In this document: piece by piece, positions 1,486-9,349 of the stretch
Layout: each line of letters opens with the position of its first letter
Numbering within the stretch: the first letter of the stretch is position 1
NCBI GenBank assembly: GCA_018267795.1
Contig: JAFDXS010000001.1
Span: forward strand, 1 to 28,826
Length of the DNA stretch: 28,826 nt
Source: Bacteroidota bacterium
GTDB lineage: Bacteria; Bacteroidota; Bacteroidia; Chitinophagales; Chitinophagaceae
Reading direction: 5' to 3'
The notes under the pieces: model-generated
Database searches by the model: none
Told to the model about the DNA's origin: nothing
The model's input: only the letters and a program-made list of their open reading frames with translations
Translations under genes and position numbers: made by a program

Positions 1486-3309
1486 TTAATGCAATTCAAA
1501 TTGAATTTTACTCAAGTGCTTGTAAAGCCCGCCCTCGATATTTATTAATTCGTAGTGAGTGCCGGTTTCCCTTATGGCACCCTGCTCCAGCACTACTATA
1601 AGATCTGCATTCCGGATAGTGGATAAACGATGCGCAATAACAAATGAGGTGCGGTTCTTCATTAAGTTTTGCAACGCTTCCTGCACCTGGCTCTCAGATT
1701 CAGAATCAAGAGAACTGGTAGCCTCATCAAGTATTAGTATTACAGGGTCTTTCAATATTGCACGGGCTATGGCTATTCTTTGCCTTTGTCCCCCGGAAAG
1801 CTTTATACCCCTTTCCCCTACTATTGTGTCGTATTGCTCCGGGAAGCTTACTATAAAATCATGTGCATTTGCTTTGGCTGCAGCTGCTTCTACTTCTTCT
1901 TTTGTTACCTCCGGGTTTCCGTAAGCTATATTTTCATATATGGTACCACCAAACATGAAAACATCTTGCGGCACCATAGCCATTTGCTTCCTGAGTTGCG
2001 ACAAAGGAATGCTGTTTGCTGCTTGCCCGTCAAATAGCAATTGACCGCTATCGGGCTCATAAAATCTTAAAAGTATAGATATTAAGGTGCTCTTACCGGC
2101 CCCGCTGGGGCCTATTATGGCTACTTGCTGTCCTTGTCGTGCTTCAAGATTTATATTTTTTAAGGTCTGTGTGTCCTTCCTGCCGGGATAGCTGAAGCTT
2201 ATATTTTGTAAAGAGACATTGCCTGATAGCTTGAATTTGTTTTCTAAATGCAATGGTGTAACAGATACATTTTCAATTGGTTCGTTTAGTAATTCTCTTA
2301 CTCTTTGTGTAGCACCCAGTGTTTTTTGGAGCTGGCTATATAGGTCTGCAAAACCAGCTATGCTGCCTCCTACAAATGCCGTGTAAACTACAAATGCAGT
2401 AAGATCGCCAAAGGAAAGCAACCCATGTTGCATAAGGCCGGCCCCATACCAAACTACCAATACTATGGCACCAAACACACTGAACAATAAAAATGAAACA
2501 AAAAATCCTCTAAAACGGCCATTTCTTACAGCCATGCTCACCATATTATTAATGCTATTGGTATAGCGCTTTATCTCATACCACTCATTAGAAAACGCCT
2601 TCACGTTGCTTATGCCCTGCAGGCTTTCCTGCACTATAGTGCCTGAGTCTGCCAACTGGTCTTGCGCCTGTCTTGCCAGCTTTCTTATGCGTTTGCCAAA
2701 TATTACAGCTATTACTATTATTACCGGCACTACTGACAGCATAAGAAATGTAAGCCTGGCAGATATGAAGAAAATAAGCCCAAGCCCAATGAGCAGTGTA
2801 AGCACGCCTCTTAGTATTTCCGCCAGTATGGAAGTAACAGCATCCTGTATTTGGGTTACATCTGCACTTACCCTGCTCGATAGCTCACCTACCCTGCGCT
2901 GTGCAAAAAAATCCATAGGCATCATTATCAGTCTTTGGTATATTTCTTTCCGCATATCAGCTACGGCATTTTCGCCTACGCTAGTAAACAGGTAGATGCG
3001 CAAAAATGAAAAGATCATCTGCAAGATTAGCACGCACACCATCACCAGTGCTATATTGCCCGGCGTGGCCAGGCTTTTACTATTTGTTATATCATGCGCG
3101 CTGTCTATAAGCTTTTTTAGCAAATAAGGGAACGCCATGGTTGTGCTGCTGGAAAGAGCAATGAAGATAAGGCCGGCTACAAACTGCCCCTTATAAGGCT
3201 TCAGATACCGGAAGATCAGCAGGCTTTCCTTTATACTTTGCTTGCTTATTTTTATTTTAGGCAGGCTTTCTGTAGCGTCATTACCTCTTGGTCGGGCCAT
3301 AGCTGTCAT
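1486..3309 (-). CDS. ABC transporter, fused permease/ATPase (MsbA-like half transporter)
   Basis: N-terminal TM domain; Walker A GPSGAGKST, signature LSGGQRQR, Walker B/D-loop ILILDEATSSLD, H-loop IAHRLS. Start may be 3300 (MARPRG). Confidence 0.95.
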   Translation of the reverse strand: MTAMARPRGNDATESLPKIKISKQSIKESLLIFRYLKPYKGQFVAGLIFIALSSSTTMAFPYLLKKLIDSAHDITNSKSLATPGNIALVMVCVLILQMIFSFLRIYLFTSVGENAVADMRKEIYQRLIMMPMDFFAQRRVGELSSRVSADVTQIQDAVTSILAEILRGVLTLLIGLGLIFFISARLTFLMLSVVPVIIVIAVIFGKRIRKLARQAQDQLADSGTIVQESLQGISNVKAFSNEWYEIKRYTNSINNMVSMAVRNGRFRGFFVSFLLFSVFGAIVLVVWYGAGLMQHGLLSFGDLTAFVVYTAFVGGSIAGFADLYSQLQKTLGATQRVRELLNEPIENVSVTPLHLENKFKLSGNVSLQNISFSYPGRKDTQTLKNINLEARQGQQVAIIGPSGAGKSTLISILLRFYEPDSGQLLFDGQAANSIPLSQLRKQMAMVPQDVFMFGGTIYENIAYGNPEVTKEEVEAAAAKANAHDFIVSFPEQYDTIVGERGIKLSGGQRQRIAIARAILKDPVILILDEATSSLDSESESQVQEALQNLMKNRTSFVIAHRLSTIRNADLIVVLEQGAIRETGTHYELINIEGGLYKHLSKIQFELH

Positions 3310-3325
3310 TCTATTTATATAGATG

Positions 3326-3333
3326 CAAAGCTA
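3326..3333 (-). promoter_or_regulatory. Bacteroidota -7 promoter box for the ABC transporter
   Basis: TAGCTTTG on the minus strand matches TAnnTTTG, 16 nt upstream of the ORF start. Confidence 0.6.
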
Positions 3334-3408
3334 TTTCATGCGGCAGTATGCCGATTATATTAATCGGTAAAACACATTCTTTTATCGGTAAATTATCTGT
3401 ACAAAAAG

Positions 3409-4125
3409 TTATTTGTAGTACTCATACGTGTATAGCAGCAATTGCTTAGGCATGCCAGCTTTCTTATTATCTGTGAAAAGCACTTTGCTGCGGTTACCCT
3501 TTTTATCAGCTCCTAAAGGTTTAAATTCAAAGTGGTAGTTATTCTTCGACAATGAATCAGTAATTACTTCTTTATTTGCACGTCCATTTTTGTCGTAGCT
3601 GAAATTTGTTATAATGCACGCCATCAGTTGGCCATTACTATTATATTTTTTTGTGGTGGTTACCTTATTGCGCATGTCTTTATCCAGCACATGCACTATT
3701 TCATTTTTTGACTCCTTTTCGCTAAAGCTATCTATGTAAGTATTATTATTTACCCAGTTTACAGTAGAGGCACCTATTTCCCTACCATGGTCATCATATG
3801 TCTTTGAGCCTGCTATTTTATCATCTTTATAGCTGAATTTGGTAATTGTACTGGTAACGCCTTTTCTTCCTGCCACCTGGTAGTGCAGATGTTCTATAGC
3901 TGATAGCCTCCCGCTTTCATCAAAATTGTATTTTTCTACATTATAGAACACGGTATCTACCACTATCCAGTCACCATTTACCTGCCTCGTATACGGGAAC
4001 CGTGCTTCTTCCATCATTTTTACTTTGCCTTTCAGTCCATATCGTTTTACATCATTGTCCACATTTTGCGCATTGCACTGATAGGTTAATGCAATAAGAG
4101 AAAGAAGAAAAAAAGCTTTTTTCAT
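3409..4125 (-). CDS. Secreted hypothetical protein with YD/RHS-like beta-hairpin segments
   Basis: Start refined to MKKAFFLLSLIALTYQCNA-Q (signal peptide, then Gln); recurring YxFDxxG/YDxxG-like motifs (YNFDESGRL, TYDDHGRE, SYDKNGRA). Confidence 0.8.
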   Translation of the reverse strand: MKKAFFLLSLIALTYQCNAQNVDNDVKRYGLKGKVKMMEEARFPYTRQVNGDWIVVDTVFYNVEKYNFDESGRLSAIEHLHYQVAGRKGVTSTITKFSYKDDKIAGSKTYDDHGREIGASTVNWVNNNTYIDSFSEKESKNEIVHVLDKDMRNKVTTTKKYNSNGQLMACIITNFSYDKNGRANKEVITDSLSKNNYHFEFKPLGADKKGNRSKVLFTDNKKAGMPKQLLLYTYEYYK

Positions 4126-4327
4126 TTTGTATATATTTCTGAATAGTAGGGCTATAAAATTAATGCTTCTGCACAAAGTTTGTGAAAACTATAAAGATAA
4201 TCGTCCGGATATAACATTTATTAAATAATTGGTTGAATAAGGATTAAAATGCATCTTACAGGAAATGCAGGCTATACTTACCGACAAAACAATGTATTTC
4301 GCCGATTTGTATATGCACTTAAAAAAA

Positions 4328-4346
4328 TGACAATATAGTTTTGTCA
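4328..4346 (+). promoter_or_regulatory. -7 box (TAGTTTTG, 4336-4343) overlapped by the inverted repeat TGACAA-N7-TTGTCA
   Basis: Read directly from the sequence, about 20 nt upstream of the MFS start. Confidence 0.5.
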
Positions 4347-4365
4347 GCAAACATAAATACTCACT

Positions 4366-5604
4366 ATGACTGTAAAGCGTACCAATGCCTTAGGCTTTAT
4401 ATTTATCACTATCCTTATTGATGTTATCGGTTTAGGTATCATTATCCCGGTATTCCCCAAGCTTATACAAGAGCTTACCGGTGCTTCACTCAGCAAGGCC
4501 TCTACTATTGGTGGCTGGCTCAGTGTATGCTATGCCTTTATGCAGTTTCTATGCTCTCCTATTCTTGGTGGTTTAAGCGACAGGTATGGCAGGCGGCCTA
4601 TATTATTAATTGCATTGTTAGGTTTGGGTATCGATTATGTATTCCAGGCAGTTGCACCTACTATTGGCTGGTTGTTCCTTGGCCGGGTTATAGCGGGCAT
4701 GTGCGGTGCCAGCTTCACCACAGCTACAGCATATATAGCAGATATAAGCACACCCGAGAAACGCGCACAAAACTTTGGCCTCGTGGGTGCTGCCTTCGGT
4801 TTAGGCTTTATCATCGGTCCGGCTATTGGAGGCATTTGTGGTCAGTGGGGTGCCCGTGTGCCATTTGTAGTTGCAGCATGTTTTAGTTTGCTCAATTTTC
4901 TATATGGCTACTTCATCTTACCCGAATCACTGGAGAAAGACCATCGTCGCGAATTTAGCTGGAAACGTGCAAATCCTTTGGGCGCAGTAAAGCAACTCCG
5001 GCGCTACCCTATTGTGTCCGGTTTAGTCATTTCATTTACATTGATCTATCTGTCCGGTCAGGCCGTTCAATCTACCTGGGCCTATTTTACAATGCTCAAG
5101 TTCAACTGGAGTACGCAGATGGTAGGCTATTCATTATCAGTGGTAGGTGTGCTCATCGCTTTAGTGCAGGGCGCGCTTATCAGGGTTACCATTCCCAAAT
5201 TCGGCCAGAAAAACTCTGTTTACATAGGGCTTATCCTTTACACCATAGCCCTGGTCCTTTTCGGTTTTGCATCAAAGGGCTGGATGATGTATGCTTTCCT
5301 CGTCCCCTATTGTCTTGGTGGTATCGCAGGGCCAGCCTTACAGGGCATTATTTCATCCCAGGTGCCACATAATGAGCAAGGTGAGTTGCAAGGCGCGCTT
5401 ACCAGTCTCATGAGTCTCACCACTATCATTGGCCCGCTTATGATGAACAATCTCTTTGCCTGGTTTACCAACACAAAGACAGCGCCTGTATATTTTCCAG
5501 GTGCAGCTTTCATCGCAGGGGCAGTGCTTATGTTCGTCAGCATTTTGTTTGCCATACCATCTTTAAAGAGCTATCATTTGTCTATAAAGGAAACTACATC
5601 TTAG
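4366..5604 (+). CDS. TCR/Tet-family MFS efflux transporter (DHA1, TetA-like)
   Basis: About 12 TM segments; MFS motif [12 protein letters not shown]; antiporter motif [13 protein letters not shown]. Confidence 0.93.
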
Positions 5605-5623
5605 GCAACTAATAATACTTTTT

Positions 5624-5654
5624 ATAAAGGGGTTCACAAAGCCCCTTTATTTTC
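5624..5654 (+). terminator. Intrinsic terminator after the MFS gene
   Basis: ATAAAGGGG-N9-CCCCTTTAT followed by TTTT. Confidence 0.65.
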
Positions 5655-5773
5655 TCATTTAAAGAACCTCGTCCAATATAGTTAGATATGTTATAAGTCT
5701 TATTCGATAATTTATTATTTAAACATTACAGCAAATTTCACATTATACCTAAGGGATTTTTAGACATAAGAAT

Positions 5774-5781
5774 TATCTTTG
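5774..5781 (+). promoter_or_regulatory. -7 promoter box for the acyltransferase-desaturase operon
   Basis: TATCTTTG, 19 nt upstream of the TTG start. Confidence 0.6.
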
Positions 5782-5800
5782 ACCCTATAGAAAAAAATAA

Positions 5801-6679
5801 TTGTCTGTAATCTCTTATTATATAGTATTGCCGTTTATCTATTTGTTATCGGCATTGCCATTTCGTGCATTATACATCCTGTCAAATGGTATGTATGTGT
5901 TTTTGTATCATATTACAGGCTACCGAAAAAAAGTTGTCATTACTAATTTAAAAAACTCTTTTCCTGAGAAGAATGAAGAAGAGATAAATACAATATGTAA
6001 ACAATATTATAGTTATCTCTGCGATCTTTTCCTGGAAACATTTAAAACGCTCACTATTAGCAAAAAAAGCATGCTCAAGCACTGCTACTTTCGTCCCGAA
6101 GCACAAAAGCTTTTTGATCGCCTTGCGGATGAAAATAAAAGTGTGATACTTGTCTTAGGTCATTTGGGCAATTGGGAGTGGGCTGGTAATACATTTAGCC
6201 TTTGTTGTCGGCACCAGTTATACGTTATATATCATCCTTTGCGCAATAAGCAGTTTGATGGGCTGATGTATAAAATGCGTTCGCATTTTGGCACTAAGCT
6301 TATTCCTATGAAAGACACCTTCCGCACTATGCTTGCTCAAAAAAATGAATTAAATGCTACTGCCTTTATTGCAGATCAGACACCCTTTCCTGATAATGCC
6401 TATTGGGTGAAGTTTCTTAACCAGGATACCCCGGTATTTAAGGGCACAGAAATTATTGCTAAAAAGATTAATTATCCCGTAGTCTATGTAAACGTGAGCC
6501 GCGTAAAACGAGGCTACTATGAAATGAATGCTGAAATGCTCTGCGAAAATCCCGCTGCAACCGCAGATGAGGAAATTACGCGGATGCATACCAGTCGCCT
6601 GGAGCAGGATATAATAGCTCGTCCTGAAACATGGCTATGGTCGCACAAGCGCTGGAAACACAAAAGAGTTACTAACTAA
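5801..6679 (+). CDS. Lipid A late acyltransferase family protein (LpxL/HtrB-like)
   Basis: N-terminal TM anchor; GHLGNWE catalytic motif; FIADQ motif; C-terminal PETWLWSHKRWK. Confidence 0.9.
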   Translation: MSVISYYIVLPFIYLLSALPFRALYILSNGMYVFLYHITGYRKKVVITNLKNSFPEKNEEEINTICKQYYSYLCDLFLETFKTLTISKKSMLKHCYFRPEAQKLFDRLADENKSVILVLGHLGNWEWAGNTFSLCCRHQLYVIYHPLRNKQFDGLMYKMRSHFGTKLIPMKDTFRTMLAQKNELNATAFIADQTPFPDNAYWVKFLNQDTPVFKGTEIIAKKINYPVVYVNVSRVKRGYYEMNAEMLCENPAATADEEITRMHTSRLEQDIIARPETWLWSHKRWKHKRVTN

Positions 6680-6701
6680 TATTAAAAAATAAGGAAATTG
6701 T

Positions 6702-7682
6702 ATGAAGACAGGTAAAGAGCTCATATTAGCTACTAAACCTTTCGCAAAGGAAATACGGAGTGAGAGTTGGAAACATACCATTGTGGCCTTCGTGCTTTTA
6801 TTATCTTTTTTGTTTGGTACTTTATTATTGCCTGGCTTTCTGCCTAAGCTTTTGTGCAGCATAGGTGCAGGCCTTATGGTGATACGTACGTTTATTATTT
6901 ACCACGATTATCTACATCATTCTATTCTCAATAAGTCACCGCTGGCACGTGTCATCTTTTCTATTTTTGGTGTATATACGCTGGCACCTGTGAGTATCTG
7001 GAAGCGATCTCACGACTATCATCATAAGCACAATTCCAAGCTGTTTAGCGCAAGCATAGGCTCCTACCCTATAGCTACTAAAAAGAAATTTTTGTCCATG
7101 ACAGCGCGCGAACGCCGTGCTTACCTTGCCACACGTCATCCCATTACTATGTTGTTTGGCTATATCACTATGTTCGTGATTGGTATGTGCCTTAATTCTT
7201 TTTTAAGTTCGCCACGCAAGCATTGGGACTCTTTGCTGGCTTTGTTATTGCACCTTACAGCATCCGTATTGCTTTTTTATTTTGGTGGTTGGCAGGCATG
7301 GTTTCTTACCGCTTTTCTTCCTTTCTTCCTTGCCTTTAGTGTGGGTGCATACTTGTTTTATGCGCAGCATAATTTTCCCGGTGTTACCTTTTCCTCCAAT
7401 ACAGAATGGACATACGAAAGTGCAGCGCTGGAATCTTCAAGCTTTATGGTTATGGGCCCGGTGCTCAACTGGATTACAGCAAATATTGGCTACCACCACA
7501 TACATCACATTAATGCCCGCATACCATTTTATCGCTTGCCTGAGGTAATGGCAGCGATACCTGAGCTCCAGCAAGCGAAAAGAACTTCGTTATCACCGCG
7601 CGATATGAAGAAGTGCATTAAGCTGAAAGTTTGGGATCCGGAAAGGAACCAGTTAATTCCGCTTACTTTGGTAAACCGGTAG
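6702..7682 (+). CDS. Membrane fatty-acid desaturase (Bacillus Des-like acyl-lipid desaturase)
   Basis: Three His boxes HDYLH, HDYHH, HHIHH (IGYHHIHHINARIPFYRL); TM segments; 22 bp after the acyltransferase. Confidence 0.92.
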   Translation: MKTGKELILATKPFAKEIRSESWKHTIVAFVLLLSFLFGTLLLPGFLPKLLCSIGAGLMVIRTFIIYHDYLHHSILNKSPLARVIFSIFGVYTLAPVSIWKRSHDYHHKHNSKLFSASIGSYPIATKKKFLSMTARERRAYLATRHPITMLFGYITMFVIGMCLNSFLSSPRKHWDSLLALLLHLTASVLLFYFGGWQAWFLTAFLPFFLAFSVGAYLFYAQHNFPGVTFSSNTEWTYESAALESSSFMVMGPVLNWITANIGYHHIHHINARIPFYRLPEVMAAIPELQQAKRTSLSPRDMKKCIKLKVWDPERNQLIPLTLVNR

Positions 7683-8010: not shown

Positions 8011-8038
8011 AAACACGCTCTTGTAGCGTGTTTTTTTT
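8011..8038 (+). terminator. Intrinsic terminator after the first csp
   Basis: AAACACGCT-CTTGT-AGCGTGTTT followed by a T-run. Confidence 0.8.
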
Positions 8039-8063
8039 GCACCTGACATGTCGTTCCAATTTT

Positions 8064-8095
8064 TTTGACAATGCCTGCATTCTTCAGTATCTTGC
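8064..8095 (+). promoter_or_regulatory. Promoter for DUF763 (TTTG/TTGACA ... TATCTTGC)
   Basis: TTGACA (8065-8070), a 17-nt spacer, TATCTT (8088-8093), then only 5 nt before the ATG. Confidence 0.55.
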
Positions 8096-8098
8096 AGT

Positions 8099-9310
8099 AT
8101 GTCTCGTTCCTACGCCGATATGCCCTTACACTATGGTCAGGTACCACCCTGGCTTTATCAGCGTATGAGCAAGCTGGGAGTTGCGATCATCGAGGCTATT
8201 GTCACAGAATATGGCAAAAGCGCTGTTTTAGCCCGTCTTAGCGATCCTTTTTGGTTTCAGGCGCTTGGTTGTGTATTAGGAATGGACTGGCATTCATCCG
8301 GTATCACTACATCTGTTATGGGCGCTTTAAAGCGTTCTGTAAATCCAAGGGCAAAAGAATTGGGGATTTATATCTGCGGCGGTAAAGGAAAGTATTCGAG
8401 AGAGACACCTGCGGAACTAATAAAGATAGCTGAAGAAACAGGGCTTGATGGCGATTTGCTGGTACGCAGCAGTAAGCTATCTGCCAAGGTAGATAATACT
8501 GCCATACAGGATGGCTACCAACTATATCTACACTCTTTTATTTTGAGCAATGAGGGTGAGTGGGCAGTTGTGCAGCAAGGCATGAATGATGCGAACGGTA
8601 TGGCAAGGCGTTATCATTGGCATTCCCCGTCCTTAAAGTCTTTTGTGGAAGAGCCACATACTTATATATATGGCCACAACCAAGGTTTGATATTAAATAT
8701 TACGGATAAGAAAGCAGATACTACGCGTTCCGGCATATTACAGCTCACACACGAAGAACCTGCGAGTCTGTTGCCGGAAATCAGAAAGCTGTTTATGCCC
8801 GTTCATCACGATGTAAAGGCAAAGGACGTTGACCTTAAAAGATTGGGTGCAATACTGGCTGTGGCTCATGAAAAAGAAGGTCTGGATATAGAGTCCTTGT
8901 TGCTCCTGGAAGGCTTGGGCCCACGCACTTTGCAGTCATTAACGCTCGTAAGCGAAGTAATACACGGCACACCTTCACGTTTCGAAGATCCTGCTCGTTT
9001 TTCTTTTGCCCATGGCGGTAAAGACGGCCATCCCTTCCCTGTTCCCACCAAAGTATATGATGAAACCATACATACTTTAGAGATTGCAGTGAACAGGTCT
9101 AAGCTTGGTCATACCGATAAAAGCGCAGCAATAAAAAATCTTTCGAAAGCGGCGCAGTTGCTAGAGAAGGATTTTCAACCCAATAATAATTTTGAGCAGC
9201 TCATAGAGCATGAACGAAATGAATCATGGAAGTATGGCGGTAGAACTGTGATGGGCAAGGCAGTACCGCCTAAACAAAAGCCAAAGGGCTTTCAACTAAG
9301 ACTATTTTAG
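8099..9310 (+). CDS. DUF763 (COG1415-like) protein
   Basis: Family motifs recognised from memory: DPFWFQALGCVLGMDWHSSGITT, GGKG, AKVDN, QQGMN, RRYHW, FSFAHGGKDGHPFPV; also an HhH-like LLLLEGLGPRT and C-terminal QLRLF. Confidence 0.88.
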   Translation: MSRSYADMPLHYGQVPPWLYQRMSKLGVAIIEAIVTEYGKSAVLARLSDPFWFQALGCVLGMDWHSSGITTSVMGALKRSVNPRAKELGIYICGGKGKYSRETPAELIKIAEETGLDGDLLVRSSKLSAKVDNTAIQDGYQLYLHSFILSNEGEWAVVQQGMNDANGMARRYHWHSPSLKSFVEEPHTYIYGHNQGLILNITDKKADTTRSGILQLTHEEPASLLPEIRKLFMPVHHDVKAKDVDLKRLGAILAVAHEKEGLDIESLLLLEGLGPRTLQSLTLVSEVIHGTPSRFEDPARFSFAHGGKDGHPFPVPTKVYDETIHTLEIAVNRSKLGHTDKSAAIKNLSKAAQLLEKDFQPNNNFEQLIEHERNESWKYGGRTVMGKAVPPKQKPKGFQLRLF

Positions 9311-9320
9311 GCTTGGCTAT

Positions 9321-9349
9321 AAAAGAAAAAGACCGGAATATCCGGTCTT
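9321..9349. terminator. Terminator between convergent DUF763 and the second csp
   Basis: AAGACCGGA-ATA-TCCGGTCTT; the U-tract is on the minus strand, so it is stronger for the csp. Confidence 0.75.

Follow-up and report, generated by a model that had tools for sequence, protein, structure and literature searches.

The question raised by this locus is what is done by the protein encoded at positions 8099-9310 of the forward strand, in a window (the whole stretch of DNA analysed here) of 28,826 nucleotides from contig JAFDXS010000001.1 (assembly GCA_018267795.1) of a Bacteroidota bacterium of the family Chitinophagaceae. The coding sequence was found to contain an ATG start and 403 codons followed by the stop, and it was present as a single copy in the 3.3-Mb draft genome. 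The protein was found to match the family PF05559 (DUF763; COG1415) with an E-value of 2.2e-135 and a score of 451.4 bits against a gathering cut-off of 35.5, the alignment running over residues 5-315 and profile positions 2-319 of 319, in agreement with a preliminary description of the window in which the same coordinates had been given to a DUF763 protein. The family occurs in Archaea and Bacteria and is catalogued yet uncharacterised; the literature searched was found to list DUF763 without assigning it a function, as had been stated before, and none of it ties DUF763 to the sliding clamp. NCBIfam contained no model for the window protein, and its nearest named relatives were metagenome-assembled genomes of Flavipsychrobacter and Taibaiella (Chitinophagaceae). 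The match covers the full length of the family and every family-wide invariant residue is present, whereas, compared with most of the DUF763 clusters formed at 50% identity, the window protein is of the long form, distinguished by an additional helix, a strand (GGRTV) and a tail of the clamp-motif type. From the evidence below, it is judged fairly likely that the window gene encodes a DNA-damage-response protein acting on DNA at the sliding clamp.

The C-terminal tail and its conservation

The protein was found to end in QLRLF (residues 399-403; 9293-9307, forward strand), directly followed by the stop codon and preceded by the Lys/Pro-rich flexible linker KAVPPKQKPKGF (9257-9292), so that the terminal motif and linker of the preliminary description are present as described. 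QLRLF matches the clamp-motif patterns QL[x]LF and Qxx[LM]F and is taken here as a putative binding motif for the beta clamp (DnaN). The clamp-binding consensus at the C-termini of the SOS polymerases (Pol IV/DinB, UmuC and Pol II) is QL[S/D]LF. As in those polymerases, the pentapeptide of DUF763 ends the chain after a flexible linker and the same positions are conserved, whereas the DUF763 tail is carried by a non-polymerase without a known fold and its role as a clamp motif is putative. In the AlphaFold model the predicted local distance difference test (pLDDT) score was 42-66 across residues 384-403, i.e. the tail was modelled as disordered.

The conservation of the terminal QLxLF among orthologues, proposed earlier as a check, was found to be high. 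It was present at the end of 116 of 120 close homologues (79-97% identity), in which the three residues preceding the motif varied freely. Among 80 Bacteroidota genomes of the Chitinophagales, Sphingobacteriales, Cytophagales, Flavobacteriales and Bacteroidales, with identities of 62-84%, a variant of the motif was found in 78/78 complete orthologues: 67 ended in QLxLF, 8 in QLxLW[DE] (all Bacteroidales-type), and the remainder in close variants such as QLxIxF. When these 78 tails were anchored on the motif, Q was conserved in 100%, the first L in 97%, the second L in 99% and F in 88% (otherwise W, so that F/W reached 100%), whereas position 3 was free (2.4 bits) and the linker varied in sequence and length, with an entropy of 2.1-3.6 bits over the 14 columns before the motif. 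An Acidobacteria-like clade of about 44% identity, one member of which is named as Vicinamibacterales (Acidobacteriota), was found to contain QLxLF in 118/120 sequences after an Arg-rich linker. Among 77 complete tails of this clade sampled from a soil metagenome, 54 were strict and Q[GPR]xLF was the ending of most of the remainder; Q, L4 and F5 therefore persist.

Within the window genome, C-termini of the form QLxLF were found in 3 of 4090 open reading frames (ORFs) of at least 100 aa, namely the window DUF763, Pol IV (ending in EQLKLF) and a PA0069/SplB-type radical SAM protein. Pol IV is a textbook clamp client. Judged by these alignments and counts, the DUF763 tail is a true short linear motif of the clamp-binding kind, beyond what chance would give.

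A different reading of the tail is that its target is some protein that is not DnaN, or that it serves as a signal for degradation or localisation, DUF763 then being a nucleic-acid enzyme without a connection to the replisome and acting, for example, on RNA. The many family members without a tail would be accommodated by this, and HhH (helix-hairpin-helix) motifs bind nucleic acid non-specifically. It is nevertheless regarded as improbable: fixed positions 1, 2, 4 and 5 with a free position 3, at the extreme C-terminus of a disordered linker, make up the established clamp-motif pattern and equal the Pol IV tail of the window genome itself; the variants QLxLW, QLxIxF, QLxLPG[LF] and QxxLF resemble the motifs of known clients, for example the Bacteroidales Pol IV forms QLxIxF/QLxLxF; and the SOS operators and the dnaE2 operon described below point to DNA.

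Lineage differences of the tail were also observed on the polymerase side. In Bacteroidales Pol IV (L084-L089) the hexapeptide QLxIxF/QLxLxF was found, with a few acidic residues after it, and in Chitinophagaceae Pol IV the pentapeptide QLxLF; the DUF763 proteins of those Bacteroidales genomes end in QLxLW[DE], and one Bacteroidales DUF763 reads QLNIRF. Hexapeptide clamp forms include QLSLPL of E. coli Hda and QLVLGL of Pol IV. The parallel shifts in DUF763 and Pol IV of the Bacteroidales are consistent with, and no proof of, a lineage drift of a shared docking site, as read from the C-termini.

The third QLxLF-ending ORF of the genome, the PA0069/SplB-type radical SAM protein (COG1533, a published SOS gene; C577:3054-4127, which is L083:105-1178), ends in QLPLF. 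Among 30 Bacteroidota homologues (L189-L218), 21 were found to contain strict QLxLF-type ends and most of the others QG[RK]LF, and the protein may be a second repair enzyme with a putative and apparently undescribed clamp-docking tail.

The tail was found to be limited to certain lineages. The best 150 cluster representatives at 50% identity were mostly of a short form of about 340-390 aa, ending after the conserved K..ALKRL helix without a C-terminal extension; the extension from about residue 360 onward is the defining mark of the long form. Bacterial short forms were found in Omnitrophota, in Syntrophorhabdales and in a MinC/Maf context, and one short form stood in an archaeal context. A single short-form representative of 69 was found to contain a match resembling the clamp-binding motif (CBM-like), apparently by chance. 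In a Proteobacteria/Myxococcota-like clade, with Sinorhizobium, Neorhizobium, Ensifer, Xanthomonadaceae and Myxococcales among its named members, 94/119 sequences lacked the motif and 17/119 contained QLxLPG[LF], reminiscent of the hexapeptide clamp motifs; the rhizobial C-terminus reads GGRSVFGWEPP... The putative clamp tethering is thus, on the distribution of the motif, a derived feature restricted to some bacterial lineages.

NucS/EndoMS is a repair protein of Archaea and some Bacteria, and its bacterial members contain a lineage-acquired C-terminal beta-clamp motif. DUF763 resembles it in being shared by Archaea and some Bacteria with a clamp motif confined to particular lineages. NucS is, however, a PD-(D/E)xK nuclease of known mismatch specificity that is non-homologous to DUF763. 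The archaeal NucS contains a PCNA-interacting (PIP) box, whereas a PIP-like box Qxx[LIMV]xx[FYW][FYWL] near the C-terminus was found in 0/69 short-form DUF763 representatives, taxon labels being available for few of them; the search for PIP boxes in homologues, suggested with the preliminary description, thus came back empty.

SOS operators and the dnaE2 operon

The non-canonical LexA operators of Bacteroidetes are CTAA-N5-TTAG and GGA-N5-TCC (Sanchez-Osuna et al. 2021, PMC8565304). Across 81 Bacteroidota loci (1.0 Mb) 38 CTAA-N5-TTAG sites were found, 28 of which lay within 200 bp upstream of DUF763, a region amounting to 1.6% of the sequence. The site was present before DUF763 in 27/81 loci, nearly all of them at -14 to -18, where it reads CTAAnTTTGTTAG and overlaps the -7 promoter box. 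The boxed loci belong to Pedobacter, Mucilaginibacter, Arcticibacter, Niastella, Chitinophaga, Cyclobacteriaceae and others, and the upstream sequence around the boxes was unconserved between genera. Large CTAA-type regulons have been reported in families that hold these loci (PMC8565304), and DUF763/COG1415 was found to be unnamed in that paper and in the supplements examined. Compared with that published regulon, the DUF763 orthologues of Sphingobacteriaceae, Chitinophagaceae and Cyclobacteriaceae contain its operator, whereas the window gene contains no canonical box.

In two Rhizobiaceae loci, of Sinorhizobium and Neorhizobium, DUF763 was found to be preceded by an alphaproteobacterial LexA box, GAAC-N7-GAAC (GTTC-N7-GTTC), at -57 to -43, which was the single such site in the 9.3-kb locus in both cases. 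No known LexA box and no de novo dyad was found in the upstream regions of the Acidobacteria-like metagenome DUF763 genes, and no clear LexA box at the DUF763 locus of a Xanthomonadaceae metagenome-assembled genome.

In four Cytophagales-type loci (L022, L027, L033 and L046; about 2700-7200 of each), DUF763 was found to follow a dnaE2-like gene for a Pol III alpha subunit of 1000 aa. Two of the loci have the genes 1 nt apart or overlapping by 4 nt; in the other two, a membrane ORF of 76 aa stands between them. One or two exact CTAA-N5-TTAG boxes stood 30-50 bp before dnaE2 in three of the four loci, and L022 contained a degenerate copy with two mismatches. The dnaE2-like polymerase of these loci was found to lack a clamp motif of its own. 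No imuB gene adjoined any of the four pairs. The placement of the CTAA boxes, the operon with dnaE2 and the quantitative analysis of the motif have apparently not been described before. The SOS operators in two phyla, together with the dnaE2-DUF763 operon, provide independent evidence that ties DUF763 to the DNA-damage response.

The operon also brings in a reading in which DUF763 is a non-catalytic translesion adaptor, a functional analogue of ImuB that links DnaE2 or Y-family polymerases with the beta clamp and whose conserved pocket binds a partner or DNA. Its support comes from the four Cytophagales loci themselves, where a clamp-motif DUF763 directly follows an SOS-boxed dnaE2-like gene without the motif, and from a mycobacterial precedent, in which ImuB provides the clamp motif for DnaE2 (PMC10421592). 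In the ImuA'-ImuB-DnaE2 mutasome, as in these loci, a clamp-motif protein is encoded with an SOS-controlled, motif-less DnaE2, whereas ImuB is a Y-family polymerase homologue without sequence or fold similarity to DUF763, and the pairing of DUF763 with dnaE2 is found in few lineages. That pairing was present in only 4 of the 81 Bacteroidota loci, most DUF763 genes being solitary; tail-less short forms are widespread, archaeal contexts included; and the pattern of invariant loop residues (Asp, His, Arg, Gln and Lys) is more like an active site. A purely adaptor role is therefore considered unlikely.

In the window, a terminator hairpin of the upstream csp gene (8011-8033, forward strand) was found to separate csp from DUF763, followed by the presence of a promoter-like site of the gene's own, TTGACA-17-TATCTT (8065-8093, forward strand), which leaves almost no leader. 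A terminator-like hairpin (9329-9349, reverse strand) stands between DUF763 and the convergent csp gene. With these three elements the gene is probably monocistronic.

The window genome was found to contain a single LexA-like gene of the HTH_3 plus Peptidase_S24 type (C30:1535-2353), whose promoter contains the perfect palindrome TTCCA-N7-TGGAA (C30:1496-1512). The 12-mer AATTCCAATTTT of this palindrome recurs before an operon of a Y-family polymerase and the PA0069 radical SAM gene (C577:1621-1632). Before DUF763, TTCCAATTTTTTTGACA (8054-8070, forward strand) contains the left arm and spacer of the palindrome, TTCCAATTTTT lying 45 bp before the gene with a degenerate right arm. The 10-mer TTCCAATTTTT has 15 occurrences in the genome, four of them within 150 bp upstream of an ORF, namely those of the three promoters just described and one wrongly oriented copy. 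The element TTCCA-N7-TGGAA, with TTCCAATTTTTTTGACA, may be a variant SOS operator unlike CTAA-N5-TTAG and GGA-N5-TCC and is offered as a lead only; the nearest relatives (L002 and L003) were found to lack it.

Conserved residues, domains and predicted structure

In a 69-sequence alignment of the DUF763 family, the residues Q160, R170 and R171 were found to be invariant, and D63, W64, S66, S67, G68, D132, Q159, G161, Y172, H173, W174, G306, G307, K308, D309 and P312 to stand on columns that are invariant or at least 90% conserved. The polar motifs to which attention had been drawn, DWHSSG (residues 63-68), KVDN (130-133), QQG (159-161), RRYHW (170-174) and HGGKDGHP (305-312), were all located and fall on columns of this kind. 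The AlphaFold model of the whole protein (pLDDT 79.9; predicted template modelling score, pTM, 0.79) was found to contain an N-terminal alpha/beta domain, a helical domain with an HhH, a Gly/Pro loop, three helices and the tail.

The N-terminal alpha/beta core domain (residues 1-200; 8099-8698, forward strand, from the alignments and the model) contains most of the invariant polar residues, in DWHSSG, GGKGK, AKVDN, QDGY, QQGMN and ARRYHW. Modelled alone it reached a pLDDT of 89.4 and a pTM of 0.87, and no match was found for it in the PDB, the best VIA Z-score being 4.3 and the best Foldseek E-value 0.13. A sequence search of the PDB with the window protein gave no relative, and a profile search of the PDB gave nothing significant. 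The fold searches of the PDB by Foldseek and VIA, with the whole protein and with the N-domain, gave no structural relative, and in the AFDB clusters, the Swiss-Prot models and the ESM Atlas (fold and features) DUF763 proteins alone were matched. As far as these searches see, the predicted N-terminal fold is apparently absent among characterised proteins.

The helical domain (residues 204-290; 8708-8968, forward strand, from the secondary structure of the model) contains the candidate HhH motif LLLLEGLGPRTLQSL (residues 267-281; 8897-8941, forward strand), which fits the pattern hxxhxGhGxxxAxxh and in which G274 and L281 are at least 90% conserved. The preliminary description had placed an HhH at about 8897-8943, and the model contains one there, with a helix at residues 264-268, a GLGP hairpin and a second helix at 275-289; no Pfam HhH model matched, and when the family profile was run against PDB sequences its sole hit was RuvA, whose two HhH motifs aligned on LLLLEGLGPRTLQSL at a non-significant E-value (0.87). 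The top VIA match in the PDB was the tandem-HhH domain of TEFM, with a Z-score of 5.2 that lies under the noise level quoted for the tool. The presence of an HhH in DUF763 is thus supported by the predicted structure, with the sub-threshold RuvA and TEFM matches pointing the same way.

The helical domain is followed by the Gly/Pro-rich loop RFEDPARFSFAHGGKDGHPFPVP (residues 295-315; 8981-9043, forward strand, from alignment and model), of the form GGKDGxPxP, in which D297, P298, G306, G307, K308, D309 and P312 are conserved at 90% or more and model confidence is low; it is a candidate active-site or DNA-contact loop. The C-terminal helices (residues 317-379) and the GGRTV strand (380-384) follow at 9047-9250 of the forward strand in the model. 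Membership of the HhH-GPD glycosylases was considered because the HhH precedes a Gly/Pro loop in which Asp and Lys are conserved, recalling lyase/glycosylase layouts, and was rejected, no glycosylase being present among the Foldseek or VIA matches of the whole protein or the N-domain. Catalysis by DUF763 is inferred solely from the pattern of invariant polar residues.

If the window gene encodes a clamp-recruited damage-response protein, the protein would be made after DNA damage, with constitutive expression or control by the variant operator possible in the window genome. At stalled forks or gaps its tail would dock in the hydrophobic cleft of DnaN, and the HhH domain would grip the DNA backbone. 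The N-terminal pocket (D63, D132, D138, H145, Q159, Q160, R170, R171 and H173), together with the GGKDG loop, would process a damaged DNA structure; alternatively, DUF763 may aid translesion synthesis by DnaE2 or a Y-family polymerase, as ImuB tethers DnaE2 to the clamp. A more specific proposal, put forward tentatively, is that DUF763 is a new class of SOS-induced, clamp-riding damage-processing enzymes with a fold of its own, which in Bacteroidota serves DnaE2 or Y-family translesion synthesis as its clamp-docking partner and processes the lesion or the blocked primer end to let synthesis restart. Such a role in lesion or primer-end processing at DnaE2/Y-family synthesis, if true, is undescribed for any known family.

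Gene neighbourhood, distribution and weight of the evidence

Of 201 sampled Bacteroidota genomes that were at least 90% complete, 13 were found to contain DUF763 (10 of 109 genera; 1 of 12 within the family of the window). Such scattered presence, combined with an identity of 62-85% across orders, fits an accessory gene that is strongly constrained. Ku was present in 8 of the 13 DUF763-positive genomes compared with 22 of the 201 overall, a count uncorrected for kinship. The window genome itself was found to encode Ku (C87:1846-2382).

The segment 5801-10765 of the window contains a mirror order of genes in which an acyltransferase-desaturase and a csp gene are followed by DUF763 and then, on the opposite strand, by a second csp and a desaturase. 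The preliminary description had hinted at a link with cold. On such a reading DUF763 would be a member of a cold-adaptation module with the csp and fatty-acid desaturase genes, and the symmetric position between two csp and two desaturase genes speaks for it. A csp-like ORF was, however, found within two genes of DUF763 in only 1 of 80 other Bacteroidota loci (L049), and no desaturase neighbour was conserved, so that DUF763 is probably an insertion unrelated to the cold-adaptation genes around it; the flanks are local to the window genome, and, as described above, a terminator lies between the upstream csp and DUF763, which has a promoter-like site to itself. The cold-adaptation role is accordingly held to be very improbable and was dismissed.

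In one Acidobacteria-like genome (L097:8001-12911), DUF763, DUF72, a radical SAM gene and a DUF4130-uracil-DNA glycosylase (UDG) gene were found in a row. Radical SAM and UDG form a known SOS-regulated pair (PMC8565304), and DUF72 is a UvdE-like TIM barrel suspected of a part in repair (PMC11791011). A general adjacency of DUF72 was rejected: it stood directly downstream of DUF763 in L097, L100, L009 and L076, but in 0/56 of the Acidobacteria-like set was it directly downstream, a DUF72 ORF lying upstream in one locus (L185).

Several of the findings weigh against the interpretation that the window gene encodes a damage-response protein working at the clamp. The promoter of the window gene was found to contain neither CTAA-N5-TTAG nor GGA-N5-TCC, CTAA-N5-TTAG occurring at background level genome-wide, and the closest relatives of the gene likewise lack CTAA-N5-TTAG. 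Support for the candidate variant operator comes from three promoters, with DUF763 included in its discovery. The clamp motif is absent from the Rhizobiaceae-type and all short-form members, and the core function of DUF763 must therefore operate without the clamp. No Pfam HhH model matched at E-values up to 10, and every structural match lay under the noise thresholds. No conserved gene neighbourhood was found across 80 Bacteroidota and 80 metagenome DUF763 loci, and the co-occurrence with Ku may merely reflect shared soil ecology and kinship. For the clade of the window gene, the clamp-recruited reading is supported by the runnable tests aimed at refuting it, which favoured it.

At 50% identity the family was found to comprise over 3,000 clusters, and it is present in many archaea as well as in bacteria of soils and bacteria associated with plants. 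The sequence evidence runs along three independent lines, namely the conserved putative clamp-docking peptide, the SOS operators of two unrelated repressor systems and the DnaE2 operon, which agree with one another and give DUF763 its first specific, bench-testable role in DNA repair or damage tolerance. DUF763 thereby becomes a candidate member of both the bacterial clamp interactome and the SOS regulon of Bacteroidetes, and, if its N-terminal domain is catalytic, it would represent repair chemistry in an undescribed fold.

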